Below, in pieces: positions 2,014 through 35,419 of a stretch of 49,234 nucleotides of DNA (the first letter of the stretch is position 1; every line of letters begins with the position of its first letter). Made by a program: the position numbers and the translations under genes. The notes under the pieces are model-generated. The model was given only the letters and a program-made list of their open reading frames with translations. It did not search any database and was not told the DNA's origin. The stretch comes from Chlorobiota bacterium (GTDB lineage Bacteria > Bacteroidota > Bacteroidia > Bacteroidales > JAADGE01). The stretch covers positions 1-49,234 of the forward strand of contig JAADDR010000188.1 in the NCBI GenBank assembly GCA_013153865.1. Direction: 5' to 3'.

Positions 2014-2033
2014 AAAAGAAAACATTTGCGATT

Positions 2034-4241: not shown

Positions 4242-4294
4242 TGTTTTCAATAAATATTAAAAAATTCTAAGTCTTGAACCCTAATTCCGACAAA

Positions 4295-7200: not shown

Positions 7201-7564
7201 CAAAACAGTAGAATTTGCAGGCGCAAAAAACCCGCTTATCTACATAACCGACGGCGAACTGAAAACCGTTAAAGCAAGCCGAAACGGAATAGGAGGATAC
7301 CAAACCGAAGAAAAAGACTTTAAATCCGAAATAATACACTACAAATCCCCGACATGGTTCTATATGTTCTCCGACGGATACCAAGACCAATTCGGAGGTC
7401 CCCAAAACCGTAAATTTATGATTAAACAACTCAAAAAACTATTACTCGACATACACTACAAACCAATGGAAGAACAACACAGAATCCTGAACGAAGTAAT
7501 AGAAAAATGGATGGAAAACACTCCCCAAACAGACGATATACTGCTTATAGGATTCAAACTCTGA
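4295..7564 (+). CDS. Membrane sensor phosphatase: two-component-regulator beta-propeller + Y_Y_Y domain + TM helix + coiled coil + SpoIIE/PP2C domain
   Basis: ATG at 4295 (MNLKKQ) precedes the signal peptide. Propeller repeats (VYVDADKNIWIGTNDG, EKDGLPS), Y_Y_Y (YSNLDPGTYTFIVKAKN...ILPPWY), TM segment, PP2C motifs PRDIVSGDFY, DCTGHGVPGA, DGMD, SDGYQDQFGG, QTDDILLIG. Confidence 0.9.
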   Translation: MNLKKQLIITLIFLLFSNTLFSQIESKGIPYIKNYTRTDYDGNNATYSVIQDKRGIMYFANQTYILEFDGKNWRKIFIPGDPNIYSLAKNNEGTIFVGASVGELGYLYIDDTGSMKYKSLKNKIPEDKQQFTLAREVIKGPDNEMIFITPLTLYIYQNDTIKTIDVEKPENRFVNPFEVNGKIYIQEKGLGIMEYKNGKLSLLKKTEFFSNKWVVGMFGIPESDKINIATWQDSVYNYNKGKIKSINENSLLKSLYKTAKYNSKYYVGGLYGKGLIICDKNLRVIKHITTNNGLQNNTVFSVYVDADKNIWIGTNDGISVIYANLPYTVFSSFANLTEAVYTSIKFKNNLYVGSSVGIFYKNFNKKNSIDGGKFKQIQIPQGSVQIWKIDTINNTLLAASSMGLYLVNNDKAELVGPDVSVKSFININGKKNTILATGGNGLSLFKYENNTWKYEHTVKNFKGNFRHIEEDSDGSFWISDRSKGIFRLKLTPELDSVITEQEFTEKDGLPSTFGNYVYKINNRIVFTTDKGVYIFDKKTQKFIKDPEFHEIFKRDIKITNLYQARNGNIWFKEEIKDPKIRTKKYWELGEIITKNGKTEIIKKPFYKVKNRINSINQISDNELIVGTESGFVLYNLNSSKKFEKPFLALIRKIEIIKNDSLIFGGAFKNDSGQMVLQQNPDKIPQIPFEFNDLRFSFASVFYEEPEKTKYKFILRHNDTQWSDWKSKTDKEYSNLDPGTYTFIVKAKNLYNVESKTAEFTFEILPPWYRTFGAYLGYFILFILFIYGIIQLSIARLKKQRENLKRIVEERTKEIQIQKEEIEAKNETLSAQNEEISQKNASITASINYAKRIQEAMLPLKEKISKGLPENFILFKPRDIVSGDFYWYAEKDGKIIYTAVDCTGHGVPGALMSMIGSEILTTIVNTNGITKADVILKKMNDYVVKALKQEKEGLSQDGMDMALCVIDKENKTVEFAGAKNPLIYITDGELKTVKASRNGIGGYQTEEKDFKSEIIHYKSPTWFYMFSDGYQDQFGGPQNRKFMIKQLKKLLLDIHYKPMEEQHRILNEVIEKWMENTPQTDDILLIGFKL

Positions 7565-7645
7565 CACAATTATCAAAAACTAAAAACAATAAAAACATAC
7601 TTTTAATGTTATATACCCCGTATAAACAATCACAAAACTAAACAT

Positions 7646-8656
7646 ATGAAAATAAAACTCAAAAAAACGCTCGTAAACATAATACTCATCACCGTTACGG
7701 CAACAATAACATCCAATGCTCAAAAAGCAACCCTCAAAGGACAAGTAATAAACAACACAAAATACACAAAAATAGAACTCCAAGACCTGTCATACAAAAC
7801 ATTAGAAACACAAAAACTCGACAAAAAAGGAAAATTCAAATTCAATACCGAATTTGATAAATTCAACTTCTACATTCTGGTTCTCGACAAACAAAACTTT
7901 ACCGTATTCTTTCCCGAACCCGGAGAACAAGCCGAAATAATAATAAACGCCGATAACATACGAAACCCCGAAATCAAAAACTCCGAACAAACAAAAATAT
8001 ACTACGAATACAGTAAAAAATTCTCCGAAATAAAAAACAACAAAGACAAAATCGAATTTATAAAAAAAATGATTGACGACAACCCCTCGTCTCCGGTTTG
8101 CATATTCTTTATCGACAACCTCAACCCGAAAACAGATTACGAATACTTCAAAAAACTCGCCGACGGACTCAAAAAATACAAATACAACCCTATCGTCAAC
8201 GAATTCATTACAAAAACCGAAAACATTAAAAAATTAGAACCCGGAAAAGAAGCTCCCGACATAGCACTACCCGACCCCGACGGCAATATCATAAAACTCT
8301 CGTCACTCAGAGGAAAATATGTCCTCATAGACTTCTGGGCTTCATGGTGCAGACCATGCAGAGCAGAAAACCCCAACAACGTAAAACTGTACCAAAAATA
8401 CCGCGACAAAGGATTCGAAATATACGGAGTATCTCTCGACAAAGACAAAAACTCTTGGATAAAAGCAATAGAAAACGACAAACTCACATGGACACAAGTA
8501 AGCGACCTCAAATTCTGGCAATCCGAAGGAGCAAAAATATACAACGTAAAAGCAATACCGCACACCGTACTGCTCGACAAAGAAGGTAAAATAATAGCAA
8601 CCGGACTGAGAGGTCACAACCTGTCTCAAAAACTAAAAGAAATATTCGGATACTAA
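7646..8656 (+). CDS. TlpA-like periplasmic disulfide reductase (AhpC/TSA-redoxin fold, DUF4369-like N-terminus)
   Basis: Signal peptide; APDIALPDPDG; LIDFWASWCRPCRAENPN (CxxC); cis-Pro IPHTVLLDKEG. Confidence 0.9.
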   Translation: MKIKLKKTLVNIILITVTATITSNAQKATLKGQVINNTKYTKIELQDLSYKTLETQKLDKKGKFKFNTEFDKFNFYILVLDKQNFTVFFPEPGEQAEIIINADNIRNPEIKNSEQTKIYYEYSKKFSEIKNNKDKIEFIKKMIDDNPSSPVCIFFIDNLNPKTDYEYFKKLADGLKKYKYNPIVNEFITKTENIKKLEPGKEAPDIALPDPDGNIIKLSSLRGKYVLIDFWASWCRPCRAENPNNVKLYQKYRDKGFEIYGVSLDKDKNSWIKAIENDKLTWTQVSDLKFWQSEGAKIYNVKAIPHTVLLDKEGKIIATGLRGHNLSQKLKEIFGY

Positions 8657-8663
8657 AACAAAA

Positions 8664-8990
8664 ATGACACAACTGCCGAAAAACCCTACACTTAAAGACA
8701 TGCAAGAACACATCAAAAAACTTGCAATAAAACGAGGATGGAACAAAAACAACCACCTGGAAATATTTCTGCTGCTTACCGAAGAAATAGGAGAACTTGC
8801 AAAAGCCGTCAGAAACAAAACAAACCTATATACCGAAAACAACAAAAAATACCATAAAGAAGAACTCGAACTCGAATTTGCCGATGTCATGAACTACATT
8901 TTCGACCTGGCAAACTACTTCGACATAAACCTCGAAGAAGCTTTCAGAAAAAAAGACAAAATAAATGCCGAACGAAACTGGAAAAACTGA
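8664..8990 (+). CDS. MazG-like (all-alpha) nucleotide pyrophosphohydrolase
   Basis: EEIGELAKAVR and ELEFADV metal-binding motifs; NLEEAFRKKDKINAERNW tail. Confidence 0.85.
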   Translation: MTQLPKNPTLKDMQEHIKKLAIKRGWNKNNHLEIFLLLTEEIGELAKAVRNKTNLYTENNKKYHKEELELEFADVMNYIFDLANYFDINLEEAFRKKDKINAERNWKN

Positions 8991-9026
8991 AATACCGAAT
9001 TTACAAACACTAAAAACAACAAAACC

Positions 9027-9743
9027 GTGAAAAACAAAATTATAATTACGATAATACTGACAACATCAACGCTGCTCACACAAGCACAAAAAATTAACGA
9101 CATACAACTCCTTAAATCAGAACTCGACACAATCTCACAACAAAAACTGACCGTAAACTCCGTTGCCGTTAACCAAAACGGAAACTGGATAATTCTTTAC
9201 GGAGACATAGGATACTCATTCACGCAAATGCCGCAAAAACTGTCCGAAAAATTAGAAACACTGAACAAAAAACAAATACCCCTTAAAGACATAGACTTCA
9301 TCGGAAAATCCGGATGGCTGCTGTTAGCCGCCGAAAACGCATTCTACTCAGACTCCCTGCCCGAAAAATTCCTAAACGCACTCAAACAAGTCAACAAACA
9401 AGGACAAACAATAACATGCGCCGACACATACAAAAACAAAACCCTGCTGCTGTTCGGAAAAAACAAATACTACAAACAAAACATACCCGAAACACTCAAA
9501 AAAAAGATTATAAACCTGCAATACAGAAATCAATATATCAAAAATGCGGCACTTACAAAAAACGACGGATGGGCACTGCTATACGCAACAAAAGGATTTA
9601 CATACAAAAACATCCCGGTTGCAACCGCAGAAAAAATGAAAGAACTCGTGCAAAACGGCTCCTCTCTCGACAAAATCTTCTTCCTCCCGGACAACAAATG
9701 GATTATAATTTACGACAAATATAAATACGCAAGCAATCTATGA
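9027..9743 (+). CDS. Secreted hypothetical protein with five ~43-aa internal repeats
   Basis: GTG start, signal peptide ending TQAQ. Repeat cores GNWIILYG, GWLLLAA, KTLLLFG, GWALLYA, KWIIIYD. Confidence 0.75.
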   Translation: MKNKIIITIILTTSTLLTQAQKINDIQLLKSELDTISQQKLTVNSVAVNQNGNWIILYGDIGYSFTQMPQKLSEKLETLNKKQIPLKDIDFIGKSGWLLLAAENAFYSDSLPEKFLNALKQVNKQGQTITCADTYKNKTLLLFGKNKYYKQNIPETLKKKIINLQYRNQYIKNAALTKNDGWALLYATKGFTYKNIPVATAEKMKELVQNGSSLDKIFFLPDNKWIIIYDKYKYASNL

Positions 9744-10537
9744 CAATACAAAAAACCCTTATAATACTTACCGCAATAATAACGGCAAACTCTGTTAACG
9801 CCCAAAATACCGTATCCGCAAAACTATATTTCCCCCGGGAAATATCGGAAAAAGAACCCCTCGAAATAAAACTCGAAATACACAAACCCGAAAAACTCAC
9901 ATCATACGCAACATTCAAACAAAAAATACCCGAAGGATTCAACATCTCACCGGAAAACACCGCTGACGCAAAAATTACATTCGAAAACAACATTCTTACA
10001 CTTTCGTGGATAAGACTCCCCGACCGAAACACCGTAAACGCAAAATACAAAATAATAAACAACCGCGCAAAACCGGGAACATACAACCTCGGAGGCAACT
10101 TCTCATATATTACGAATAACAAAAAAGGCGAAATAAATATCAAAAACAAAACATTTACCCTAATACCCCGAAAAACAAACACACCGGAAAACAATAACAT
10201 AAAATGCATCAGAAAAAAAATACCGCAAAACAACAAAACACTTACAATAAAAATAAACATCAACGGATTAGAAAATATACCATGCATAATTACGGAAGAA
10301 ATCCCGCCGGGATACAAAATTAAAACCCACAACGAAGAACAAACAGCAACAAAAATCAACAACCGTATAATACAATTCTACTGCAACAAAACAAACAAAA
10401 ACCAACAAAACAAAATAATAACATACACTCTAATCCCCGAAAACAAAAACCTTAACACAACACCACTGATATACGGAAAACTATCCTTTATCAAAAAAAA
10501 CAAAATAATAAACATCCCCGTAACAGACAGTAAATAA
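9740..10537 (+). CDS. Secreted hypothetical protein with two tandem Ig-like/beta-sandwich domains
   Basis: ATGA overlap with the upstream gene; signal peptide ending VNAQ; duplicated motifs FKQKIPEGF / ITEEIPPGY and LGGNFSY / IYGKLSF. Confidence 0.7.
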   Translation: MTIQKTLIILTAIITANSVNAQNTVSAKLYFPREISEKEPLEIKLEIHKPEKLTSYATFKQKIPEGFNISPENTADAKITFENNILTLSWIRLPDRNTVNAKYKIINNRAKPGTYNLGGNFSYITNNKKGEINIKNKTFTLIPRKTNTPENNNIKCIRKKIPQNNKTLTIKININGLENIPCIITEEIPPGYKIKTHNEEQTATKINNRIIQFYCNKTNKNQQNKIITYTLIPENKNLNTTPLIYGKLSFIKKNKIINIPVTDSK

Positions 10538-10575
10538 ACACAACAAAAAATAAATGCAAACTTTTTTCACAATTC

Positions 10576-10607
10576 TTGCACAGAGTTAAAATTTTATTCT
10601 ATTTTTG
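10576..10607 (+). promoter_or_regulatory. Bacteroidota sigmaA-type promoter for the tetR-efflux operon
   Basis: TTG at 10576-10578, 21-bp spacer, TATTTTTG at 10600-10607 matching TAnnTTTG. Confidence 0.65.
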
Positions 10608-10610
10608 CAA

Positions 10611-10624
10611 AGTGAATACTCACT
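10611..10624. promoter_or_regulatory. Putative TetR operator (palindrome AGTGA-ATAC-TCACT)
   Basis: Dyad immediately downstream of the -7 element, over the expected transcription start of a TetR gene. Confidence 0.65.
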
Positions 10625-10646
10625 AACATAACATTTGCAAAACAAA

Positions 10647-11231
10647 ATGAACCTTACCGCACGACAATTAGACATAATAGGAACGGCCGGTAAACTGCTG
10701 ACATCTTTCGGACTAAGCGGGCTGACAGTTAAAAACATAGCAAAAGAAATGCACTTTGCCGAAAGCACGCTGTACAGACACTTCCAAAGCAAAGAAGAAA
10801 TAATAGTCTCAATGCTGCAATATCTTGCCGACAGCATCGACTCAAGACTAAAACAAATAAAATACACGGAAAACCCCGAAAAAAGCCTGAAAATTCTATT
10901 CAAAAACCAACTTAACTTTTTCGCGGAAAACCCGCACTTCGTAGCATCAGTATTCTCAGACGGATTAATGGAAGAAACAGAAAACATTAACAACGCAATA
11001 TCAAAACTCATAAAAATAAAAACAAAATATTTAAGCCGGATAATAACGGAAGGACAACAAAAAAAAATATTTACCGATAAAATACCTGCTGAACTGCTGG
11101 TAAACATAATTATGGGATCTTTCAAACTCCAAATGCTGAAATGGAGAATGGACAATTTCGGCTTCGACATAAAAAAAGAAGGAAACGAAATGGTCAGATA
11201 CTTCCTCATACTTATCCGAAACAACAAATAA
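10647..11231 (+). CDS. TetR/AcrR family transcriptional regulator
   Basis: HTH GLTVKNIAKEMHFAESTLYRHFQSKEEI. ATG at 10647 preferred over TTG at 10635. Confidence 0.92.
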   Translation: MNLTARQLDIIGTAGKLLTSFGLSGLTVKNIAKEMHFAESTLYRHFQSKEEIIVSMLQYLADSIDSRLKQIKYTENPEKSLKILFKNQLNFFAENPHFVASVFSDGLMEETENINNAISKLIKIKTKYLSRIITEGQQKKIFTDKIPAELLVNIIMGSFKLQMLKWRMDNFGFDIKKEGNEMVRYFLILIRNNK

Positions 11232-11251
11232 AAAACAAAAAAATATATATC

Positions 11252-12613
11252 ATGAACAAAATAAAATCAACTAAATTCAAAAAAATGTTAGTTAACACTC
11301 ACAAATTAAAATTCCTTACGGCATTAATCATAACCATGATTATATCCGTACAAAACTATGCACAAACATGGACTCTGCAACAATGCATAGACACGGCACA
11401 AACAAATAACAAAAACCTGCAAATAAGCAAAAACGAAATGCTGATAAGCTCCGAAAAAGAAAAAGAAGTAAAAGCAAACCTGCTGCCAAAAATAAAACTC
11501 GCGGCAGACTACAAATACTTCATAGACCTGCCATACCAACTAATGCCCGCATCGGCATTCGGAGGACCCGAAGGCATATACAATGCCGTGCAATTCGGAA
11601 CACCGCACAACATAAACGTAGGACTGCAAGCAGCATTACCCCTCTATAACCCGGAACTCTACGGAGGAATGAAAACGGCAAAAACAGCCGTAAAACTAAA
11701 CCAACTTAAATACAAAAAAACACAAGAAACAGTTTTTTTCGATATATCAAACTTATATTACAACGCACAAATACTGAAACACCAAATAACATTTATCGAC
11801 AGCAACCTCACAAACACAGAAAAACTGCTCAAAACAGTAGAACTGCTGTATAACCAAAAATTAGCAAAAAAAACAGACGTCGAAAAAATAAAACTGCAAA
11901 AAGCAACCCTTAACACACAACGCGAAACAGCAATGAATAACCTTACACAAATAATAAACCTGCTCAAACTTAACATGGGAATACCCGCAGAAACAAAATT
12001 AGACGTAGAAACAGAAATAAAATACAAAAACAACATCACATACGAACAAAAACAAAACATTGACATCCAAATCGCAGGAACACGAAAAGAACTCCTCGAA
12101 ACCGAACTCAAAACAATCAAAAACAGCAGACTGCCGTCAGTATCGGCATACGCAAACTACTCGCAAACAGGATTCGGATACGACGGAGAACCCGAAAGCT
12201 TCCTCGATTTCTACACAATGTCATTCGTAGGACTGCAAATAACCGCACCAATATTCAACGGAACAGTAACTAAAAGAAAAATAAGCCGAAAAAAAATAGA
12301 AATCGACAACAGCAAACTCCAAACGGAACTGCTCTCCGACCAAAACAATATACAAATCGAAAACGCCGTAAAACAACGAAACATAGCATCAAAAAACATT
12401 GCGGATACCGAAAACCAAATAAACCTTGCACAATCAATATACAACCAAACAATTCTGCAACAAAAACAAGGTGTCGCAAGCCTTACCGACGTATTAATGG
12501 CAGACGGAAAACTCAAAGAAGCCCAACAAGACAATATTGCAGCAATTATTAATTACCTTAAAGCAGACTTAGAACTGAAAAAATTAACGGGAAACATAAA
12601 TTTATCAAAGTAA
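11252..12613 (+). CDS. TolC family outer-membrane efflux protein
   Basis: Signal peptide then WTLQQCIDTAQTNNK; LLPKI and RLPSVS repeats; APIFNG; GVASLTDVL. Start is ATG 11252 or 11285; the track start at 11141 overlaps tetR. Confidence 0.9.
   Translation: MNKIKSTKFKKMLVNTHKLKFLTALIITMIISVQNYAQTWTLQQCIDTAQTNNKNLQISKNEMLISSEKEKEVKANLLPKIKLAADYKYFIDLPYQLMPASAFGGPEGIYNAVQFGTPHNINVGLQAALPLYNPELYGGMKTAKTAVKLNQLKYKKTQETVFFDISNLYYNAQILKHQITFIDSNLTNTEKLLKTVELLYNQKLAKKTDVEKIKLQKATLNTQRETAMNNLTQIINLLKLNMGIPAETKLDVETEIKYKNNITYEQKQNIDIQIAGTRKELLETELKTIKNSRLPSVSAYANYSQTGFGYDGEPESFLDFYTMSFVGLQITAPIFNGTVTKRKISRKKIEIDNSKLQTELLSDQNNIQIENAVKQRNIASKNIADTENQINLAQSIYNQTILQQKQGVASLTDVLMADGKLKEAQQDNIAAIINYLKADLELKKLTGNINLSK
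11290..11303. promoter_or_regulatory. Possible second TetR operator inside the tolC 5' end (AGTTAACACTCACA)
   Basis: 11/14 identical to AGTGAATACTCACT at 10611-10624. Confidence 0.4.
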
Positions 12614-12635
12614 ACAAATAATAAAACTAAATAAA

Positions 12636-13706
12636 ATGAATACAAAGAAAACGATATTATGGATTGTTACTCTGGCAGTAATATTAGCTGTTATGATTAT
12701 TCAACTGAAAAAAAACAGACAAGAAACACTTAACAAAGTCTATCACTACGACAAAAACGCTCCCGTCAGCATACATGCCGACACGCTGAAACTCAAATCA
12801 CTTAACGACAAAACAACATTTTCCGGAATATTTAATCCGAACAAAGAAACAAAAATAAGTGCCGATATCCCCGGAAAAGTAGAAGAAGTATTCGTAAAAG
12901 AAGGAGACTACGTAAAAAAAGGTACTCCGCTGCTGCAACAAGACAAATCTTCCCTGATGCTCGAACTGAAACAAGCCGAAGTCGCACTAAAAGAAATACA
13001 AGACGACGTAAACAGATACTCGGTATTGGCGGAAGCAGACGCAGTACAAGGCGTAAAACTCGAAAAAGCTCAACTCGGATTACAAGCAGCAAAAATTAAA
13101 CGCGAAATACTGCTCGACAAAATAAACAAAACAACCGTCAGAGCTCCCTTCTCGGGAATTATAACAACAAAATTTACCGAAAAAGGAGAATACGCAGCAC
13201 CGGGCAGACCGCTGTTTCAACTCGTTGACATAAACACGCTCAAATTTACCGTAAACGTATCCGAAAACGACCTCGTTTTATTCAAAAACAACAAAACATA
13301 TCCCGTTAAAGCAACAGTATATCCGCAAGACACACTATACGGAAAAGTAATATCAATAGGAAGCGAATCAAACAAAATGAGTCACGATTTCCCCGTACTG
13401 ATGAGCGTAAAAAACACTCCCGACCTGAAAGTAAAAGCCGGAATGTTCGGTAAAGCTCACATAAAAAGAGACAACGAAAACAACGAAAAATACATAATAA
13501 TAGAAGCATCATCACTCATAGGAAGCAATATTCACCCGCAAGTATATATAGTAAAAGACAATAAAGCTTGGTTACAAGACATAGTAATATCAAGCCGATT
13601 CAAAAACAATGTCGTCGTATCTAAAGGACTCAAAGAAGGAGACATAATAGTAACAACCGGCTTCATAAATTTATTTAACGGAGCTAATGTATCAATTAAG
13701 AAATAA
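12636..13706 (+). CDS. RND efflux periplasmic adaptor (membrane fusion protein)
   Basis: N-terminal TM; lipoyl-like GKVEEVFVKEGDYVKKGTPL; VRAPFSGII; KAGMFG; GLKEGDIIVTTG. Confidence 0.92.
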   Translation: MNTKKTILWIVTLAVILAVMIIQLKKNRQETLNKVYHYDKNAPVSIHADTLKLKSLNDKTTFSGIFNPNKETKISADIPGKVEEVFVKEGDYVKKGTPLLQQDKSSLMLELKQAEVALKEIQDDVNRYSVLAEADAVQGVKLEKAQLGLQAAKIKREILLDKINKTTVRAPFSGIITTKFTEKGEYAAPGRPLFQLVDINTLKFTVNVSENDLVLFKNNKTYPVKATVYPQDTLYGKVISIGSESNKMSHDFPVLMSVKNTPDLKVKAGMFGKAHIKRDNENNEKYIIIEASSLIGSNIHPQVYIVKDNKAWLQDIVISSRFKNNVVVSKGLKEGDIIVTTGFINLFNGANVSIKK

Positions 13707-20995: not shown

Positions 20996-23900
20996 ATGAA
21001 AAAAATTAACAAACCCGCATTTATCATAAAATATTTGGTATATATATCCGCAACTTTGCTGCTTTTTTCAGGCACAAGCATATTTGCTCAAAAAAAAGCA
21101 GTATATTCCAAAAATTCAATTAGAATCTTAAAAACAGGACCGACAAATACTAAAGCGGAAAGCAATAAAAACAAAACAAAATATTCATCCGCAATAACGG
21201 TAAAATCCGCAAAAGCAACATCAATATGGTCGGATGACTTCGAAACCGATAAAGGTTGGACTTTAACCGGAGAATGGGAAAGAGGAACTCCTGCAGGATT
21301 AGGAGGAGAGCACGGCAACCCTGACCCGACAAATGCTTATGACGGCAATAATATATTAGGACTTGATTTAAGCGGTCAAGGTGCTTATCCCGGAGATTAC
21401 GAACCTAATTTATCAGACAGGCAAGAAACGGCAACATCACCGGCAATAGATTGTTCGAACTATTATGATATAACATTGGACTTTCAGCGTTGGCTTGACG
21501 TGGAAAGAAACAGTTATGACCATGCATATTTAGATGTTTATGACGGAAGTGCATGGCAAAATGTGTGGGCAAACGGCAATTCAACAATTCAGGAAAATTC
21601 ATGGAACTCACAAACAATTGACGTTTCTGCTTATGCTGACGGTAACTCTGATTTCAGAATAAGATTCTCGGTAGGAGCATCAGACGGCAGTTGGCAATAT
21701 TGCGGATGGAACATAGATGCAATCTCTTTAACGGGGAACTTTTCCGGTGCAAATACCATAACCGCAGGAAGCGGCAGTGAACCTGCAACAATATCCTCAA
21801 TTACCGATGCACAAGCAGAAGCCGTTCTGAATTTTGATTTTACCGTTACCGATGACGGCTCTAATCCTGCCTTTGATGCTTCAAACACTCAATTTAATCA
21901 AATAAGTATTTTTCAAGGAACCGGAAACGATGTAACAGACTGGACTCAAGCAATAGACGGAGCCGAACTTTCCGACGGAACCAATACCGTTCTCGGCACA
22001 ATTAACAGCGACAATATTACTTTCGCATCCTTACCGGATGCCGCAGACGGAGATTTCGGATTTATAACCGATGACGGAAGCAAAACTTATTCTCTAAAAA
22101 TATGGTTAAAATCTTCTCTCGGCGGAACTCTTCCGGAAAACATAGACGGAATGAACTTCGTATTTGAAGTAACAACTTCCTCTTTTCTTCTCGAAACATC
22201 AAGCAGCAGTTTTGCAGCCGGAGAATCCGAAGAATCGGGAAGCTCTAATAACGAAGTTACGGTTGACGTAACACAATTACTCTTTACCGGACAACCTTCC
22301 GCAACGGCAACTTCGGGAACGGCTCTCGACCAACAACCCGTAGTATCGGCAACCGACGAAAACGGAAATACGGATACGGATTATTCCGGAACGGTTACCT
22401 TATCTAATACAGGAACATTAAGCATGACAAATAATTCCGTAACGGCATCCGCCGGAGTAGCCGATTTTTCGGGAAGCGGATTTCAATTTACAACCGGCGG
22501 AGAATACGTTATGCTCACTGCAAGTGACGGTACTTACAATTCCGTTTATCCTTCAAGAGAAATCGCCGTTGATATTATAGGATGTGAAATATATTCGGAA
22601 AATTTTGACTCTTTCGGAACAACATCCGATTTAGACGGATCAGACGGTTGGGCATATACGGAAAATACAAGTTCTGTTAACGATTGGGGAATAGCTGCAA
22701 GAAGCGGAAACGGAAATTGCTTAACAATATACAACGGAACTACGGCAAATCAATACAATACGGGAGATGATGCAGATATAATCGCTTATTGCACAACCCC
22801 TGTTGATGCAACCGGATATAAAAATGTTTCAATAGATATTGATTGGGAAGCATACGGAGAATCTTCCGGAAGTACCATATATGATTACGGGCAAATTATG
22901 TGGTCAACCGACGGTACCAATTGGTCAATTGCAAATGCAAATTTCTTTAAAGACGAATTGTCGTGGACCTCCGGAACTTATGACCTTTCTGTTGTTGACG
23001 GACAAACTTTTTACATCGGATTCAGGTGGGTTAACGACGGTTCTGCAGGTACAAACCCTCCTTTTGCAATTGATAACATCTCAATAAAAGGCATTCCGGA
23101 CTTCAAATATAACTTCTCATACAGAAACGATATCTTTAAACAAATTACCGGAACGGTAATAAGCGTTGATTCTAATGACGGAGCAAATATCAGCTTACCT
23201 TCGGGTTTTGATTTCCAATATGACGGAACAGCAATAAGCAGCGTAAGAGTTAATCTGAACGGATGGGTCGAAATGGGAACATCTCATACTGCAAATGCCG
23301 AAACAAACAGTTTAATAAGTACAAGCGAAGTTCCGTTTTTAGCTCCTTTTTGGGACGACCTTGATTCAGACGACCAAACTCGTATAATATACGCCGTTTC
23401 AGGAGACGCTCCCACACGCGTATTTACAATAGAATGGCTTGACGTACTTTGGGGAGGAGAAAGAGAAAATTTTCAAGTAAAACTTTATGAAACTTCGGAT
23501 ATTATCGAATTCTGGTACGGAGCAATGCATACAAACTCATCCGGAAGCGCATCAATAGGAATAAACAATGCGGGGCTGTGCATGAATAAACTTATAAGTA
23601 TCACGCCGGCAGCAACTCCCATAGCTTCTTATAATGCCGAAAATTCCGGTATTAACTCGACAACAAACCTCAGCGAAGGATTAGTTTATATCTTTAATCC
23701 TTTAAACATGCAGTCCTACTATTCGTGGCAAAATGCAACAATAGTAGTAGGACAAGTTGATTTCACGACAACAAGTACTGCCGTTGACCAATCAACAGCA
23801 TCCGGAGCAAACAGTTCCTCGGTAAGCTCTAAAGGAGTCTTAGCAGTAGGTTCGTATTACAGAAACCGTATTTTATTGTGGAATACGCTGCCTGAAACAA

Positions 23901-26900
23901 ACGGTGTTGCTGCAGATGTTGTTGTAGGACAATCGAGTTTTACAACAAGCGGATCGGGAACGTCAAGTACCGAATTGAACGGACCTTACAATGTTTGCTT
24001 CAGCCCCGACGGAGAAAAACTTCTTATAGCCGATGCAAAAAATAACAGAGTTCTGATTTGGAACTCAATTCCGACATCTAACGGAGCCGCTGCCGATGTT
24101 GTTGTCGGACAAACCGACTTCACAAGCAGTTCTTCGGGAACGGCGGCAAACAAATTAAATTCACCTACCGGAATAATAGTTTTACCCGACGGCAGACTTT
24201 TAGTTACGGATAACGGAAACAACAGAGTTCTGATATTTAATTCCATACCGGAAGAAAACGGTGCAAGTGCCGATGTTGTTATAGGACAACCGGATTTTAC
24301 AAGCAACTCATCGGGTTCAGATGCCGACGAACTGGACAGCCCGTGGGATTGCGCTTATACTCCCGAAGGCAAATTGATAATCTCCGATAACGGTGCTCCT
24401 TCTTCAGGAAATCACAGATTATTAGTGTTTAATGATGTGCCGACATATAACGGAGCCGCTGCCGATGTTGTTATAGGAAATACTGTTTTTGCCGCAAAAG
24501 AAGCGGGAACAACAAAAGATGAATTTGACCAACCCAGTGTAACATGTTCCGTAGAAGGAAAACTTGCCGTTGCAGATTTCGGAAACAGCCGTGTTATGCT
24601 GTATAATCGTGTGCCGGCATACAACGGAGCTCCTGCTGATTATGTACTCGGGCAACCTTATTTCGAAACAAAACCGGAATTTAATGACGGTTATGATAAC
24701 AGCGGCAGTGCGGATGCCAGAAATATGTATTTTCCCTACAGTATTTGTTTCGACTTAAACGGCAGACTTTATGCAAACGGCACTAATCCTCAAGGAAACG
24801 GGATGCACAGAGTAATGGTTTACGGAGAAACTCCTTCGGAAACAGCAGACTTAGAAGTTATGATTGAACCCGACCAAACAACTGTTTGTGTTTATAACGA
24901 TGTCGAATACAGCGTTATAGTCGTAAACCACGGACCCGATGATGCTTACAGCGTTACCGTAAATGCTCAATTACCTTTAGGTTTTGATGCCTCTGATTAT
25001 TCCGCTCAAGACGGTTCCACTTACAACCAAAAATCCGGTTATTGGAATATCCCTTATATTGCAAACGGAGATACGGCTCGCCTTACTTTCTCGGGAACCG
25101 TTCAACCGGATTTATCCGGAGACGGCGACGTAATTGCATATGCAAATACAGTAGCTTCAAGCCAAAAAGACAGTGATTACAGCAATAATGCCGATAATGC
25201 AACAGTTGCCGTAAGAGATTACTATGCTCCGACAATATCCGAAATAGACGACCAATATATCCCGAGAGACTCTCATACTATTCCGGTAATTGATTTTACC
25301 GTTGACGACGGAGACGGTCTGAGCGACATAACATCTTATACGGCAACATCTTCAAATACTGTGCTTATTCCGGTTGATTATACAAATAATATAATATTCG
25401 GCGGAACAGAACCGGATAAAACTCTTGACATAGTACCCGCCGCAGGAGAATACGGATATTCCGACATGTCGGTAATAGTTACGGACTCGCACGGCTGCTA
25501 TAACGAAGAACCTTTTAAAGTAATTGTCGGAAACTTCTGGGAAGGAGACGATGCAAGCTCTCCTACGGATTGGACGGTTACGGAAAATTGGTCATCAGCG
25601 GTTCCAACTTCAACACTCGAAGCCATCATACCGACTTCTCCCGTAGGAGGATTCTTTCCCGTTATAGATGTTTCGGGTGCAGAATGCGAAGACCTGCTTA
25701 TAGAACCCAGAGCATCGGTAACAATATCCGACACCTACGGATTACATGTTTACGGTGATTTTTACATCCAATCGGATGCAAACGGAACAGGTTCTTTTAC
25801 CGACTTAAATACGGCAGGATTTAATCAAGTTACAATCGACGGAGATATATTCGTTGACAGATACATTACACCGGATGCATGGCATTATGTTTCCAGCCCG
25901 CTGACCGGAGCAACAAATAAAGTCCTTACGGAAAATGTTTGCAGTAATTATAACGGAAATGTTCTGGATTATAACGAAGCATTCTCGACAGATTATGATA
26001 ATGACGGTGACATTGACTGGTTTGACGGTTGGGAATGGCCGTGGTATAACACCGTAAATAACGACGAACTGGAAGTAACAAACGGATATGCATATTATAC
26101 ATTTGCGGGAGTATGTACCGACAATGTGCAATTTACCGGCTCGGGAGTAACTTTAAATACAGGTAATTATTCTTACACCGTTACAAATAACGACGATTCG
26201 GATGATCACCGAGGCTGGAATTTGGTAGGAAACCCCTATCCTTCGGGGTTAAATGCCGACAACTTCCTTTCTTCAAATTCAAGTGTCATTGACGAAACGG
26301 TATATTTATGGGATGAACCGGGAAGTACAGGATTCGACCTCGAAGGATCCGATTACGCATCTTATAATCCGACATTGGGAGGAGCCGTCGGAACAGGTTC
26401 CGGCACGGTAATTCCGGATAAATATTTAAGTTGCGGTCAAGCATTCTTTGTTCACAGAACAAATACCGATATTCTCGGAACAAACATAAACTTTACAAAC
26501 GATATGCGCGAAACGGAAAACAGCTCTTTCTTTAAAAAAGCGGCTGTCGAAGTTCCCAAAATAAAACTCAGCTTAAGAAGCACTCAGGGCTTTTACAACG
26601 AAACGGTTATCGGAATGGTTGCAGATGCAACGTTAGGAAGAGATTCAAAATATGACGGCTTAAAAATAGAAGGAAACAGAGATTTTGCTTTTTATTCAAA
26701 AATAGGAACACGTAATTTCGTATTTCAAGGCATTCCTTTTGTAACCGGCAAAAGTTCCGTTTCGGTTCCCCTCGGATTCCATGCCGGGCTGACGGGTACT
26801 TATATACTTAATGCCGGATTAATAGAATATTTCCCCGATTCCGTAGGTTTGTATCTTGAAGATACTTATACAGGTAATTTTACGGATTTGAAAAAAGAAA

Positions 26901-27520
26901 GAACCGATACGTTTGAAATAACCGAACCCGGAAGATATGACGACAGATTTATTTTACATTTCAACCTGAATCATGCGCCGTATGCCGATTACATAGAAGA
27001 CAAATTTGTATATGCAAACGAAAGTTTTAAAATAGTAATACCCGCAGAAACTTTTAAAGACGAAGATGCAGGAAGTTCTTTATCGTTTGCGGCAAGCTTA
27101 TCCGACGGTTCTTCATTGCCTTCGTGGATAAGATTTAATAACGAAACACTGACTTTTTACGGTGCCCCCTCACAAGAAAATACAGGCACATACGGTATAA
27201 AAATAACGGCAACGGATAATGCGGGAGCCTCGGCAAGCAGCGATTTCTTACTGTCGGTATTGGAAACAAGTTCGGTTTCCGAAATAAACAACGATTTCGG
27301 AATTTATCCTAATCCTACAAACGGTATACTATTTATAAAATCTAAAGAAAATATTGTTTTTGATTATACGGTTACCGATCTTACCGGAAAAATCATGATA
27401 CATAAAAAAGCCGTTTCAAACACCGAACAGGTTAACTTATCCGAATTTTCAAACGGTATTTACTTCGTAAATATAATTTCGGATAACAATGTTTTAACTT
27501 TTAAAGTTATAAGAAGATAA
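20996..27520 (+). CDS. Large multidomain T9SS (type A CTD) cargo, adhesin-like: two MAM/lectin-like jelly rolls, Ig-like, NIDO-like, NHL-like propeller, DUF11, cadherin/He_PIG-like domains
   Basis: Signal peptide; C-terminal IYPNPTNG...DLTGK...GIYFVNI...FKVIRR; FLAPFWDDL; ADLEV...VVNHGPDDA (DUF11); GWNLVGNPYPS; DGSSLPSWIRFN...ITATD (CADG/He_PIG). Confidence 0.88.
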   Translation: MKKINKPAFIIKYLVYISATLLLFSGTSIFAQKKAVYSKNSIRILKTGPTNTKAESNKNKTKYSSAITVKSAKATSIWSDDFETDKGWTLTGEWERGTPAGLGGEHGNPDPTNAYDGNNILGLDLSGQGAYPGDYEPNLSDRQETATSPAIDCSNYYDITLDFQRWLDVERNSYDHAYLDVYDGSAWQNVWANGNSTIQENSWNSQTIDVSAYADGNSDFRIRFSVGASDGSWQYCGWNIDAISLTGNFSGANTITAGSGSEPATISSITDAQAEAVLNFDFTVTDDGSNPAFDASNTQFNQISIFQGTGNDVTDWTQAIDGAELSDGTNTVLGTINSDNITFASLPDAADGDFGFITDDGSKTYSLKIWLKSSLGGTLPENIDGMNFVFEVTTSSFLLETSSSSFAAGESEESGSSNNEVTVDVTQLLFTGQPSATATSGTALDQQPVVSATDENGNTDTDYSGTVTLSNTGTLSMTNNSVTASAGVADFSGSGFQFTTGGEYVMLTASDGTYNSVYPSREIAVDIIGCEIYSENFDSFGTTSDLDGSDGWAYTENTSSVNDWGIAARSGNGNCLTIYNGTTANQYNTGDDADIIAYCTTPVDATGYKNVSIDIDWEAYGESSGSTIYDYGQIMWSTDGTNWSIANANFFKDELSWTSGTYDLSVVDGQTFYIGFRWVNDGSAGTNPPFAIDNISIKGIPDFKYNFSYRNDIFKQITGTVISVDSNDGANISLPSGFDFQYDGTAISSVRVNLNGWVEMGTSHTANAETNSLISTSEVPFLAPFWDDLDSDDQTRIIYAVSGDAPTRVFTIEWLDVLWGGERENFQVKLYETSDIIEFWYGAMHTNSSGSASIGINNAGLCMNKLISITPAATPIASYNAENSGINSTTNLSEGLVYIFNPLNMQSYYSWQNATIVVGQVDFTTTSTAVDQSTASGANSSSVSSKGVLAVGSYYRNRILLWNTLPETNGVAADVVVGQSSFTTSGSGTSSTELNGPYNVCFSPDGEKLLIADAKNNRVLIWNSIPTSNGAAADVVVGQTDFTSSSSGTAANKLNSPTGIIVLPDGRLLVTDNGNNRVLIFNSIPEENGASADVVIGQPDFTSNSSGSDADELDSPWDCAYTPEGKLIISDNGAPSSGNHRLLVFNDVPTYNGAAADVVIGNTVFAAKEAGTTKDEFDQPSVTCSVEGKLAVADFGNSRVMLYNRVPAYNGAPADYVLGQPYFETKPEFNDGYDNSGSADARNMYFPYSICFDLNGRLYANGTNPQGNGMHRVMVYGETPSETADLEVMIEPDQTTVCVYNDVEYSVIVVNHGPDDAYSVTVNAQLPLGFDASDYSAQDGSTYNQKSGYWNIPYIANGDTARLTFSGTVQPDLSGDGDVIAYANTVASSQKDSDYSNNADNATVAVRDYYAPTISEIDDQYIPRDSHTIPVIDFTVDDGDGLSDITSYTATSSNTVLIPVDYTNNIIFGGTEPDKTLDIVPAAGEYGYSDMSVIVTDSHGCYNEEPFKVIVGNFWEGDDASSPTDWTVTENWSSAVPTSTLEAIIPTSPVGGFFPVIDVSGAECEDLLIEPRASVTISDTYGLHVYGDFYIQSDANGTGSFTDLNTAGFNQVTIDGDIFVDRYITPDAWHYVSSPLTGATNKVLTENVCSNYNGNVLDYNEAFSTDYDNDGDIDWFDGWEWPWYNTVNNDELEVTNGYAYYTFAGVCTDNVQFTGSGVTLNTGNYSYTVTNNDDSDDHRGWNLVGNPYPSGLNADNFLSSNSSVIDETVYLWDEPGSTGFDLEGSDYASYNPTLGGAVGTGSGTVIPDKYLSCGQAFFVHRTNTDILGTNINFTNDMRETENSSFFKKAAVEVPKIKLSLRSTQGFYNETVIGMVADATLGRDSKYDGLKIEGNRDFAFYSKIGTRNFVFQGIPFVTGKSSVSVPLGFHAGLTGTYILNAGLIEYFPDSVGLYLEDTYTGNFTDLKKERTDTFEITEPGRYDDRFILHFNLNHAPYADYIEDKFVYANESFKIVIPAETFKDEDAGSSLSFAASLSDGSSLPSWIRFNNETLTFYGAPSQENTGTYGIKITATDNAGASASSDFLLSVLETSSVSEINNDFGIYPNPTNGILFIKSKENIVFDYTVTDLTGKIMIHKKAVSNTEQVNLSEFSNGIYFVNIISDNNVLTFKVIRR
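23735..24830 (+). repeat. Six ~59-aa intragenic repeats (ADVVVGQxDF ... NxRVL[IV][WF]N), probable 6-bladed NHL-like propeller
   Basis: Repeat starts at 23735, 23912, 24092, 24269, 24461 and 24635 (spacings 177, 180, 177, 192, 174 bp). Confidence 0.85.
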
Positions 27521-31505: not shown

Positions 31506-32660
31506 ATGTCCGAAAAAAAGAAAATATTAATTTTTATAGACTGGTTTTTACCCGGATACAAAGCCGGCGGACCGGTAAGAAGTATTGCAAACATTACGGA
31601 ACATCTGTCGGAAGATTTTATTTTTAAGATTATAACAACCGATACTGATTATTCGGAAAATATTCCGTATTCAAGCGTAAAAAGTAACGAATGGAATACT
31701 TTATCCGAGAATGTATCCGTATATTATTTATCAAAAGACAAATTAAAAATTAAAACAATAAAAAAATTAATAAAAGATACGTCTTTTGATATTGCATACA
31801 TTAACGGTATTTACTCATTTTATTTCTCGATATTACCTCTGCTCATTTTAAGAAAATCCGAAAAAAAAATAATTGTTGCCTCGCGAGGAATGCTTTCCGA
31901 ACAGGCCTTTTCGTCAAAAAATATAAAAAAAACGATATTTCTTAAATTTGCCGGTATATTTAATCTGTATAAAAACGTAATATTCCAAGCCACGGAAAAA
32001 ACAGAAGCAGAAAATATAAAAGAAACGATAAAACAATACAAAAAAATAATTACCGTTTCTAATCTGCCTCAAAAAACCGGTTATTTAAAAAATAAACGGC
32101 GAAATAAAAAACAGGGTTCATTAAAACTCGTAAGCATTGCCAGAATATCTCCGGAAAAAAATACCCTGTACGCAATACAAATATTACGGCAACTGAAATA
32201 TGACGGTAAAATCGAGTTTGATTTATACGGTTCCGTTTATAACGAAAATTATTGGCACAAATGCAAAGAAATCATTAAAACACTTCCCGAAAATATTTCC
32301 GTTAATTACAAAAACAGTATAGAGAATTATAAAGTACACGAAACATTTTCGAAATATCATTTTTCTTTTATGCCGAGTAAAGGAGAGAATTTCGGACACT
32401 CTATTTTAGAAAGCTTTTCTGCCGGTTGCCCCGTAATTACAAGCAAAAACACTCCTTGGCAAAACCTCGAAGAAAAAGGAATCGGTTGGGACATAAACCT
32501 GAGCAACAAAGAAGAGTTTGTGAAAATTATTGAAAAATGTGCCGATATGTCCGAAAAAGAATACAATTCCATGTCTGAAAATACTTTTAATTTCGCAAAA
32601 AAATTTTCCGAAAAATCACAAGCAATAACAGATACAAAAAAAATGTTTGACGATGCATAA
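31506..32660 (+). CDS. Glycosyltransferase family 4 (GT-B)
   Basis: PGYKAGGPVRS, IARISPEKN, PSKGENFGHSILESFSAGCPVITS (EX7E). ATG at 31506. Confidence 0.92.
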   Translation: MSEKKKILIFIDWFLPGYKAGGPVRSIANITEHLSEDFIFKIITTDTDYSENIPYSSVKSNEWNTLSENVSVYYLSKDKLKIKTIKKLIKDTSFDIAYINGIYSFYFSILPLLILRKSEKKIIVASRGMLSEQAFSSKNIKKTIFLKFAGIFNLYKNVIFQATEKTEAENIKETIKQYKKIITVSNLPQKTGYLKNKRRNKKQGSLKLVSIARISPEKNTLYAIQILRQLKYDGKIEFDLYGSVYNENYWHKCKEIIKTLPENISVNYKNSIENYKVHETFSKYHFSFMPSKGENFGHSILESFSAGCPVITSKNTPWQNLEEKGIGWDINLSNKEEFVKIIEKCADMSEKEYNSMSENTFNFAKKFSEKSQAITDTKKMFDDA

Positions 32661-33207
32661 AACCGACCTCTCAAAATTCGACAACTCTTGGTATAACCCG
32701 AAAGGAAATATCGTTAAAAGAACTTTATGGTATTTCGTAAATGTTTTATTTTTTCTTAATCCGTGGAACCCGTTAAGCTCGCTTAAAATTTTTTTATTAA
32801 GACTTTTCGGTGCAAAAATAGGTAAAGGCGTTATCATAAAACCTTCCGTAAACATAAAATATCCCTGGCGTCTTTCCGTAGGAAACAATGTTTGGATAGG
32901 CGAAAAAGTTTGGATAGATAACCTTGCCGATGTAAAAATTGCCGACAATGTAAGCATATCACAAGGAGCAATGCTGCTTTGCGGAAATCATAACTACAAA
33001 AAAACATCTTTCGATTTAATTATCGGAGAAATAAAACTTGAAGAAGGAGTTTGGATAGGAGCAAAAAGTATTGTCGCACCCGGAGTTACCTGTAAATCAC
33101 ACTCCGTTCTCGCCGTTAATTCCGTTGCCGTTAAAGATTTGGAAGAATATACAATTTATCAAGGAAATCCCGCCGTAAAAGTAAGAAGCAGAATAATTGA
33201 AGAATAA
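32653..33207 (+). CDS. wcaF: WcaF-family polysaccharide O-acetyltransferase (hexapeptide repeat)
   Basis: LLRLFGAKIG, NIKYPWRL, ISQGAMLLCGNHNY, GNPAVKVR. Confidence 0.88.
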   Translation: MHKTDLSKFDNSWYNPKGNIVKRTLWYFVNVLFFLNPWNPLSSLKIFLLRLFGAKIGKGVIIKPSVNIKYPWRLSVGNNVWIGEKVWIDNLADVKIADNVSISQGAMLLCGNHNYKKTSFDLIIGEIKLEEGVWIGAKSIVAPGVTCKSHSVLAVNSVAVKDLEEYTIYQGNPAVKVRSRIIEE

Positions 33208-33268
33208 CAAAAAAACATCCTTCTTATAACACCTTTATTTTAAACAAAATACGGATACACTTTCATTT

Positions 33269-33380
33269 TAACCCGATTATTCTGAAAGTCGAGTTTCGAA
33301 ATTATCGGGTTAAATCGAAACTTCACTTTAATAATAACCCGATAATTATACAAGAATAATTTGCAAATAACCCGATAATT
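33269..33380. repeat. Four copies of TAACCCGAT(A/T)ATT on a 33-bp lattice, second copy inverted
   Basis: Direct copies at 33269-33281 (1 mismatch), 33335-33347 and 33368-33380. Reverse-complement copy AATTATCGGGTTA at 33300-33312, flanked by 13/15 inverted repeats at 33285-33299 and 33315-33329. Confidence 0.9.
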
Positions 33381-33391
33381 CAGTAAATTTG
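33360..33391 (+). promoter_or_regulatory. Bacteroidota sigmaA promoter for the AAA/DUF4143 gene, with repeat copy 4 in its spacer
   Basis: TTTG at 33360-33363, 20-bp spacer, TAAATTTG at 33384-33391; ATG at 33407. Confidence 0.75.
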
Positions 33392-33406: not shown

Positions 33407-34672
33407 ATGGATTCCGATTATATCATAAAACGGAAAATATACGACAAAATAAAAAAACACCTCGACAAAAAAGAAATTACCATAATAAGCGGTATTCGTC
33501 AATGCGGAAAATCGACAATATTGCACAAACTCAGAACAAACCTCATAAAAGAAGGAGAAAAAACAATATTCTTAAATTTCGACTTCGACAAAGACAAAGA
33601 ATTTCTGAAAACACAAGAATCACTTGTAAACAAACTGAAATTTGAATTCGGAAGCAACAAAGGATATGTTTTCATAGACGAAATTCAAAGACGAGAAAAT
33701 GCCGGATTATATCTGAAAGGAATTTACGATCTGAGATTACCTTACAAATTCATCGTATCGGGTTCGGGAAGCGTAGAATTAAAAGAAAAAATTCAAGAAT
33801 CTCTACTCGGAAGAAAACGAGTTTTCGAAATGACACCGGTAAACTTTTCCGAATTTGTAAACTACAAAACAAATTATAAATATTCGGAAAAAATAAACGA
33901 ATACTTCGAATTCGAAAAAGAAAAAACAGAACAATTCCTGAAAGAATATCTGAATTACGGAGGTTTTCCGAGAATTGTAACCGAACGGGAAACAGATGAA
34001 AAAATCGAACTTATAAACGAAATTTACAACAGTTACATAGAAAAAGATTTAATTAATCTTTTAAACATAGGCAAACCCGAACTTTTTAAAGATATCTTCA
34101 AGATGCTGTCATACCTGTCGGGTAAGTTATTAAACCTCACAAACATCTCAAACGATACCGACACATCCGTGCAAACTCTGAAAAAATACCTGTATTTTGC
34201 CGAAAAAACATACTCGCTTACCAAAATAAGACCGTATTTTAACAACATAAGCAAAGAAATTCGCAAAGCACCCGTAATTTATTTTACGGATACCGGAATG
34301 ATGAACTACATAAGCGGTAAATACGGAAATTTAAGCACACCTGCCGACTTCGGTTTTGTTTTTCAAAACTTTATTTTCAATATTCTGAAAGATACAATAC
34401 CTAAAAACCACGAAATAAAATACTGGCGAACAACAGACAAAGCGGAAGTCGATTTTATCATCGACAAAACATCCGGAGTAACGCCGATTGAAGTAAAATA
34501 CAAAAAACTGAAAAAAACAAACATAAGTCGTTCGCTCAGAAGTTTTATAAACAAATACGAACCTCAAAATGCATATATCGTAAACCTGTCGTTAAAATCA
34601 AAAATAAAAATAAACAAAACAACGATTCACTTCATACCTTACACAAAATTATTTTCGATAAAATCACTATAA
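33407..34672 (+). CDS. AAA_14 ATPase + winged HTH + DUF4143 (PD-(D/E)xK-like) protein
   Basis: Walker A GIRQCGKST, Walker B FIDEIQ, VSGS, LLGR, YGGFP, HTH-like NLTNISNDTDTSVQTLKKYL, YFTDTG, YWRT..KAEVDFI...PIEVK. Confidence 0.92.
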   Translation: MDSDYIIKRKIYDKIKKHLDKKEITIISGIRQCGKSTILHKLRTNLIKEGEKTIFLNFDFDKDKEFLKTQESLVNKLKFEFGSNKGYVFIDEIQRRENAGLYLKGIYDLRLPYKFIVSGSGSVELKEKIQESLLGRKRVFEMTPVNFSEFVNYKTNYKYSEKINEYFEFEKEKTEQFLKEYLNYGGFPRIVTERETDEKIELINEIYNSYIEKDLINLLNIGKPELFKDIFKMLSYLSGKLLNLTNISNDTDTSVQTLKKYLYFAEKTYSLTKIRPYFNNISKEIRKAPVIYFTDTGMMNYISGKYGNLSTPADFGFVFQNFIFNILKDTIPKNHEIKYWRTTDKAEVDFIIDKTSGVTPIEVKYKKLKKTNISRSLRSFINKYEPQNAYIVNLSLKSKIKINKTTIHFIPYTKLFSIKSL

Positions 34673-35419
34673 ATGAAATTCTCAATAATAACGGCAACAT
34701 ACAACAACCGAAACACAATCGCCGATGCAATAAATTCCGTTGCTTCGCAAACATACAAAAACATCGAACACATCATAATCGACGGAGCATCAACGGACGG
34801 CACACTGTCGATAATAAAAAACACGCCCGGAAAAATCTCGAAAATTATAAGCGAACCCGACAAAGGCATATACGATGCTCTGAATAAAGGCATAAAAAAC
34901 GCAACCGGAGATATTATCGTTTTTCTGCATGCCGACGACATATTTGCCGAGACCAAAATTATCGAAAAAGCCGCAAAACTTTTCGAAAAAAAGCAAACGG
35001 ACAGCATATACGGCGATTTACGTTACGTTGCAAAAGAAAATACCGACAAAACCCTAAGATATTGGAAATCCGGAGAATACTCATTCTCGAAACTGAAAAA
35101 AGGATGGATGCCGCCGCACCCGACATTTTTTATCAAAAAAGAAATATACGACAAATACGGGATTTTCGATACCGAATTTAAAATTGCCGCCGATTACGAC
35201 ATAATACTCCGATTTCTCGGAAAACATAAAATCTCAACGGCATATCTGCCGGAAGTTATAACAAAAATGCGCATAGGAGGAGAAAGCAATAAAAATATCA
35301 AAAATATAATATTAAAAATGAAAGAAGACATAAAAGCTCTGAAAAAAAACAATATAGGAGGTTTTCACACACTCGTAATGAAAAACATCACAAAAATACC
35401 GCAATTGTTTCGGAAGTAA
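34673..35419 (+). CDS. Glycosyltransferase family 2 (WcaE-like)
   Basis: FSIITATYN, IIDGASTDGT, SEPDKGIYDALNKG, FLHADD, GWMPPHP, IAADYD, MRIGG. Confidence 0.92.
   Translation: MKFSIITATYNNRNTIADAINSVASQTYKNIEHIIIDGASTDGTLSIIKNTPGKISKIISEPDKGIYDALNKGIKNATGDIIVFLHADDIFAETKIIEKAAKLFEKKQTDSIYGDLRYVAKENTDKTLRYWKSGEYSFSKLKKGWMPPHPTFFIKKEIYDKYGIFDTEFKIAADYDIILRFLGKHKISTAYLPEVITKMRIGGESNKNIKNIILKMKEDIKALKKNNIGGFHTLVMKNITKIPQLFRK

Follow-up and report, generated by a model that had tools for sequence, protein, structure and literature searches.

The reversed repeat at 33300-33314 of the window (the whole stretch of DNA analysed, 49,234 nucleotides from a Chlorobiota bacterium) belongs to an array of four boxes that we interpret, with a probability of roughly two in three, as a fixed, phase-locked and orientation-tolerant operator, likely bound by the ATPase encoded downstream, which likely represses its own gene there. 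Judged from sequence comparison, the arrangement with one reversed box is likely an orientation-tolerant variant of a probable self-operator and not a switch.

The array (33267-33380) occupies the whole space between two genes, one for a hexapeptide acetyltransferase and one for a 421-amino-acid AAA_14 + DUF4143 protein. Box 1 (33267-33281, plus strand, centre 33274) is a forward 15-bp site, box 2 (33300-33314, minus strand, centre 33307) is reversed, and boxes 3 (33333-33347, plus strand, centre 33340) and 4 (33366-33380, plus strand, centre 33373) are forward, the last lying between predicted -33 and -7 promoter elements. In the assembled sequence the four 15-bp boxes stand 33, 33 and 33 bp apart, centre to centre. 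The original prediction had read box 2 as a micro-inversion that, when flipped back, restores 33-bp phasing; there is nothing to restore, since the box sits on the 33-bp grid as assembled, and reversed boxes in other genomes occupy the same offset. The pairings on which that prediction was built were confirmed: the arms 33285-33299 and 33315-33329 are complementary at 13/15 positions around the 15-mer 33300-33314, copy 1 matches reversed copy 2 at 14/15, and copies 2 and 3 form a perfect 13-bp inverted pair. The three resulting hairpins are real, each more stable than its shuffled versions (z from -2.8 to -4.0). The left arm is the last 15 bp of spacer 1 (33282-33299, plus strand, 18 bp), which is of the family type and weakly palindromic, and the right arm is the first 15 bp of spacer 2 (33315-33332, minus strand, 18 bp), likely itself a reversed spacer; spacer 3 (33348-33365, plus strand) contains the predicted -33 element TTTG (33360-33363). 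Self-symmetry of the box is weak (6 to 10 self-matches of 15). Sites of at least 20 bits number four genome-wide and are the four array boxes, which the matrix included; the exact 13-mer has three genome copies, all inside the array, and no second array of the box was found elsewhere in the genome. A REP-like palindrome interspersed through the genome was considered and rejected on account of this confinement.

The downstream ATPase-winged-helix-nuclease gene (33407-34672, plus strand) encodes a 421-amino-acid protein with the Pfam domains AAA_14 (PF13173) and DUF4143 (PF13635), assigned to COG1373. PADLOC places it in the defence candidate PDC-S01 on matches to seven profiles (best E 7.8e-80). 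Residues G29/R31/G34/K35, D91/E92 and E347 are invariant and D349/E362/K364 near-invariant among 48 sequences, and we take these to be the Walker A/B ATPase motif and the acidic/lysine motif of a PD-(D/E)XK-type nuclease. The structure was predicted with a pLDDT of 91.9. Closest to it in fold are two archaeal ATPases, 2qen (Z 17.6, rmsd 4.3) and 2fna (Z 17.5, rmsd 4.0), each with about 270 residues aligned; other whole-protein neighbours include Cdc6/Orc1 on origin DNA (Z 13.0, rmsd 9.6) and STAND filaments. In the model, residues 218-298 (34058-34300, plus strand) form a winged-helix domain, the predicted box-binding module. Winged-helix proteins fill the list of fold matches to this domain, the best being 3r0a (Z 9.7, rmsd 2.8, 75 aligned), a likeness in the modelled fold that by itself shows no function. 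Foldseek gave no match to the domain at E 0.001, the top rows being winged-helix proteins nonetheless; Pfam returned nothing but DUF4143 for the middle domain, and a sequence search of solved structures gave no match at E 0.1. DUF4143 appears as of unknown function in a table row of PMC3424549. In the available text of PMC12988326, PDC-S01 ranks fourth in frequency among the defences of prokaryotes, and most candidates of this kind are said to await validation. The protein is a candidate anti-phage ATPase-nuclease: it matches PDC-S01 profiles and has ATPase and PD-(D/E)XK-type motifs, whereas an upstream operator array is not among the features described in the accessible parts of that literature.

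The locus is a chromosomal polysaccharide locus, syntenic in two congeners. Upstream of the array lies the hexapeptide-repeat acetyltransferase gene (32647-33207, plus strand), presumably WcaF-like and syntenic in one congener (L036). A family-2 glycosyltransferase gene (34673-35419, plus strand), syntenic in another (L038), starts directly after the ATPase stop codon and is likely co-transcribed with the ATPase gene. In this second congener (G012, L038:2155-3897), a 580-amino-acid gene, carbamoyltransferase-like by eye, replaces the acetyltransferase between conserved flanking glycosyltransferases, so that the position ahead of the array is variable.

An unbiased view of box orientation comes from 16 orthologues chosen on protein homology alone; a further order-wide search with a different query brought up essentially the same genomes. 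Five carried reversed boxes (L164, L165, L169, L196 and L197), eight were all-direct and three degenerate; G017 (L009), with its upstream region missing, stands outside this count. Every scoring reversed box in the five lies on the 33-bp grid. With offsets of -2 to +2 tried, each of the six grid positions of L196 scored best at offset 0, whichever way its box points, and L197, with a 68% identical ATPase, has the same forward-reverse-forward order as the window. The arms around the reversed boxes are 7/15 at L196 and 5/15 at L197. In the census and in the trees, each set of duplicates (L007/L038/L060, L052/L195, L067/L163, L036/L047, L010/L037 and L084/L085) entered as a single locus; L084 and L085 nevertheless make up 2 of the 19 gap-20 loci described below.

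Two scans extended the census, each with a bias of its own, as a direct-pair scan favours direct arrays, a forward-reverse scan favours reversed ones, and these arrays also supplied the seed of the box matrix. The direct-pair scan of species genomes returned 30 loci, nine with a 46-80% identical ATPase directly downstream and one further locus with a distant ATPase. The forward-reverse scan of metagenome contigs, in which the gap was free between 8 and 38, returned 93 loci, of which 39 were ordinary short hairpins with gaps of 8-9. Its peak fell at the gap of the window, 20 (19/93 loci, 14 distinct cores), with none at gap 18, two at gap 19 and none at gaps 21-23. All 11 ATPase-linked forward-reverse loci had a gap of 20, and in nine a 44-52% identical ATPase lay directly downstream. 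Around the reversed boxes of the gap-20 cores, arms reached 1-8/15 (13 measurable of 14 cores). Reverse-forward pairs at the 33-bp phase were found in 1 of 400 other genomes of the phylum, unlinked to an ATPase, against 3 control matches. The exceptions to the grid are spacings of 31 (L067) and 32 (L062) and a weak reversed match 197 bp from the next box (L059). Loose contig ends in runs X3 and X4, of 30 letters only, suggest further mixed arrays at the same phase with other flanks.

The box follows a single ATPase clade through hosts that differ in promoter type and in the neighbouring genes. Box clusters were absent upstream of all 25 distant ATPases searched (L011-L035, at most 36% identity); five upstream regions of such paralogues that were examined carry other repeats or palindromes, three of them with a spacing of 32-33. 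Two full-length paralogues in the same genome as the window likewise have unrelated upstream repeats, spaced by 33 bp (L003:670-733, C158) and 23 bp (L002:833-884, C97). An intact clade ATPase directly downstream was missing at 10 of the 19 gap-20 loci (eight with no hit, one with a distant paralogue 691 bp away and one with a gene remnant), so another trans-acting protein is possible. The eight are intergenic pairs at the 33-bp phase without an ATPase hit in the flank fetched (L070, L078, L079, L089, L124, L136, L153 and L155), and at L162 a forward-reverse pair directly abuts the 3' portion of an ATPase gene; these nine may be scars left after gene loss. Direct pairs at 33 bp without a nearby ATPase hit also occur (L055:626-669, L066:2001-2044 and L048:1302-1345), one of these records being titled uncultured archaeon. 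At L037 (G019:C34:11682-12910), both boxes persist although the clade ATPase is broken into two matching frames, covering residues 7-172 and 166-416; at least four members of the ATPase family lie on that contig.

The array overlaps a predicted promoter (33360-33391) that lies outside the arms. By motif matching, TTTG at 33360 and TAAATTTG at 33384 fit the Bacteroidota -33/-7 consensus, as given in the available portions of PMC7366714 and PMC8748976, and straddle box 4. The predicted -7 element, TAnnTTTG (33384-33391, plus strand), is of the Bacteroidota primary-sigma type and lies 11 bp past the centre of box 4 and 15 bp before the ATG. An octamer search that allowed offsets of 5-14 from the box centre placed a -7-like octamer at 11 bp in 15 of 25 arrays, 13 of them with strict TAnnTTTG. 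In four arrays (L071, L072, L084 and L149), a TTGAC-like hexamer and a TAAAAT or TATAAT hexamer overlap the reversed box in a sigma-70-like layout, and six arrays fit neither pattern. The spacer between the hexamers is 16 bp in all four; the usual sigma-70 promoter spacer is 17 bp. The octamer at offset 11 and the sigma-70-like pair over the reversed box suggest that the gene-proximal box is fitted to the promoter of the host. The operator-like character originally proposed for the boxes was supported.

We hypothesize that the ATPase would bind each box in either orientation through its winged-helix domain, as a two-fold symmetric protein unit repeated once per three helical turns on the same face of the DNA. 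A symmetric unit on one face would leave box direction free and spacing constrained. The bound ATPase would block its own promoter, and such self-repression would suit a nuclease-bearing protein that must stay at a low level. The box nearest the gene would be constrained by the host promoter, in Bacteroidota as a forward box between the -33 and -7 elements and at the four sigma-70-type loci as a reversed box running into the -10 hexamer. Reversed box 2 is distal, two periods upstream of the promoter box (box 4), and its orientation would not move the promoter. Binding by the ATPase, repression and the symmetric unit are inferred from these patterns. The weak dyad of the box together with its strongly conserved asymmetric core is not fully explained by a simple symmetric-dimer model. 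A more far-reaching form of this mechanism, which we put forward as a speculative possibility only, is that the ATPase polymerises along the array, using it as a loading track of two-fold symmetry with one unit per three turns, and thereby silences its own gene. Boxes would flip repeatedly without a recombinase and keep register because boxes and spacers carry dyad axes, and this freedom would allow the operator to be adapted to sigma-70 or Bacteroidota promoters when the gene passes between phyla.

Spacer shuffles reached 13/15 arms in 0 of 200,000 trials, and 0 of 1,560 family spacer pairs did so; 13/15 arms around a 15-nucleotide loop occur in 43 sequence windows of the 2.55-Mb genome. Interior forward boxes in the family have arms of 3-9/15 (n = 16). 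That the arms merely follow from a palindromic family spacer was rejected, family spacers averaging 6.6/15 with a maximum of 12. Spacer 2 matches spacer 1 at 14/18 positions as an inverted copy and at 9/18 as a direct copy, while among 15 other pairs of adjacent spacers seven match at 13-18/18 directly and none exceeds 10/18 inverted. On the family spacer matrix, spacer 1 scores 14.8 bits forward and 12.5 reversed; for spacer 2 the values are 4.7 and 11.0. Most simply, spacer 2 would be a sibling of spacer 1 in reversed orientation, an argument kept modest by the 4 of 27 true forward spacers that also score better reversed.

Because spacer 2 scores better reversed, an inversion of the 15 bp alone is doubtful, and the arms look like the product of a rearrangement rather than its pre-existing cause. 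Template switching, as originally proposed, stands as a fair explanation of the arms, whereas the accompanying idea of pre-existing arms and a 15-bp flip requires an ancestral state that is absent among the family arrays seen. The arms are likely the scar of a past, rare template-switch event that also reversed or overwrote spacer 2. One intermolecular switch, the type of event that the available sections of PMC8604942 describe for REG2, could have written the reverse complement of spacer 1 and its box over box 2 and spacer 2; alternatively, box 2 could have been inherited reversed, with spacer 2 inverting afterwards while looped out by the perfect 13-bp hairpin between copies 2 and 3. The 33-bp grid would survive such events because box and spacer both have a weak dyad axis.

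Phylogenetic trees of the family require four to five orientation changes, and a single clade of all-direct arrays was rejected (AU p 0.0002); the trees show that orientation changed more than once in family history. A clade of the window with L196 and L197 was not rejected (p 0.138). The case for a clearly derived reversed box in the window lineage weakened once L196 and L197 appeared; the box may be shared with these two by descent or may have arisen in the window lineage. The two syntenic orthologues of the same genus (L007 and L036) have direct boxes only, where sequence is available; L007 is the closest orthologue, and a gap of N in its array covers the second box. The nearest relatives are either all-direct or forward-reverse, in both cases with other spacers, and no relative with the same arms and the opposite loop orientation was present among the loci fetched.

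These observations bear on the proposal that box 2 is a live two-state switch, flipping between its arms by template switching or through a distant recombinase, with states that differ in operator strength. In its favour, 13/15 arms lie far beyond the family background; variant G33291A in run X3 raises the match to 14/15, as homogenisation of the arms would; spacer inversions can be reversible, in the cases covered by the accessible part of PMC8604942; and four tyrosine-recombinase matches (PF00589) occur in the genome, on C74, C94, C159 and C160, contigs other than that of the array. The right arm, however, has no second genome copy within one mismatch. The original remark that the window has no recombinase gene was upheld, with neither PF00589 nor the resolvase family PF00239 matching on the contig, and PF00239 had no match in the 92.5%-complete genome. 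Contigs from three sequencing runs (X1, X2 and X3; 5, 3 and 5 letter differences from the window) span the array in the assembled orientation only and contain no loop variants or strand-change joints; they come from one study, one run is possibly the source of the genome, and rare variants drop from contigs, so that a rare flipped allele could be missed. Runs X5 and X6 yielded no contig on the array. The only TAnnTTTG, at 33384 with TTTG at 33360, lies outside 33285-33329 and is unchanged by flipping the segment in silico. Homologous arrays also have reversed boxes at the same phase, without arms where these were measured, and both geometries are stable in relatives, which argues that the two states are probably near-equivalent. 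The original prediction had suggested comparing orientation in relatives, with homologous arrays built around an inverted site pointing to a fixed operator, and that is largely what we observed. We therefore regard a live switch as very improbable. Misassembly of a direct array into one with a reversed copy we regard as extremely improbable: the genome was assembled from a metagenome, and arrays in relatives do break assemblies (N gaps in L007, L041 and L044), but independent contigs of the three runs, with their own point variants, agree on orientation across the array, and relatives have the same arrangement.

A fixed array could also serve something other than self-repression. The same boxes might be recognised by a different protein, of the host or of a mobile element, or might be a place where the ATPase loads, as at an origin, without transcriptional effect. 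In favour are the 10 of 19 forward-reverse pairs at the same phase that lack an adjacent intact ATPase, and the Cdc6/Orc1 and STAND neighbours of the fold. Against these readings, the box tracks one ATPase clade over hosts with differing promoters and neighbours, the genome holds no second array, the register of box to promoter elements is fixed, and the chromosomal locus is syntenic in congeners; we consider them unlikely. It is improbable that mixed orientation is selected for RNA or cruciform structures, as in an attenuator or riboregulator, and not for binding of a protein to the DNA. Forward-reverse pairs are hairpins by construction, and the assembled allele folds better than the flipped one (DNA, -15.3 versus -12.1 kcal/mol; RNA, -23.5 versus -17.9 kcal/mol). 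Yet the hairpin is impossible in 8 of 16 orthologues, whose boxes are all direct, spacing is constant at three helical turns whatever the loop, and the boxes lie upstream of the transcription start, which is predicted a few bases past 33391. Rfam gave three weak hairpin matches of 14-25 bits, against gathering cut-offs of 51-211, and no intrinsic terminator pattern was found.

The preferred operator reading can be set beside several known systems. Plasmid iterons with inverted half-iteron operators and the origin boxes of archaeal Cdc6/Orc1 are helically phased and lie beside the gene of a winged-helix protein. The boxes of the window resemble them in being helically phased by a winged-helix gene, and the encoded protein has a Cdc6/Orc1-like fold (2qby, 2v1u); unlike them, the window array is chromosomal, its protein has a C-terminal nuclease-like domain, and orientations mix freely on one grid. 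The nearest folds, 2qen and 2fna, are also not those of initiators. An iteron replicon was rejected as a candidate, given a chromosomal locus syntenic in two congeners and identities of only 25-30% to the ten plasmid homologues listed. Invertible promoters of Bacteroidales share with the window inverted repeats upstream of a gene, a polysaccharide locus and a Bacteroidota genome. In those systems, according to the available text of PMC8748976, the invertible region contains the promoter and has an invertase gene next to it, whereas in the window the promoter motif lies outside, the contig has no recombinase, and contigs show one orientation.

Intermolecular template switching that inverts a spacer has been seen with arms of more than 9 bp, and in one case the same event turned a 5-bp arm into one of 16 bp (available sections of PMC8604942). 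The arms of the window, at 13/15, exceed 9 bp and the background and are alike in this respect. The inverted spacers in those sections are 2-5 bp long and in yeast coding DNA, in contrast to a 15-bp segment with imperfect arms in an intergenic region, and the window shows no flipped allele or direct ancestor among the sequences compared. No description of arrays of this kind was found in the mainly open-access papers searched, and look-ups gave no other case of free box direction at constant phase or of a tie between it and promoter type.

The locus gives a precise candidate DNA target for PDC-S01, a system that is common and largely unvalidated according to the accessible text of PMC12988326. 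Its natural variants constrain the binding mode, in that box direction is free and the 33-bp centre spacing is not, and this combination predicts a symmetric binding unit on one helix face. For genome scans, a reversed repeat between arms in arrays of this type should be taken as an operator variant and not as evidence of phase variation. Elsewhere in the window, 20996-27520 encodes a 2,174-amino-acid protein of repeated modules with a C-terminal tail that is likely of a secretion type, judged by eye, and positions 1-13000 show a strong AT skew of 0.33-0.44 over a run of plus-strand genes.
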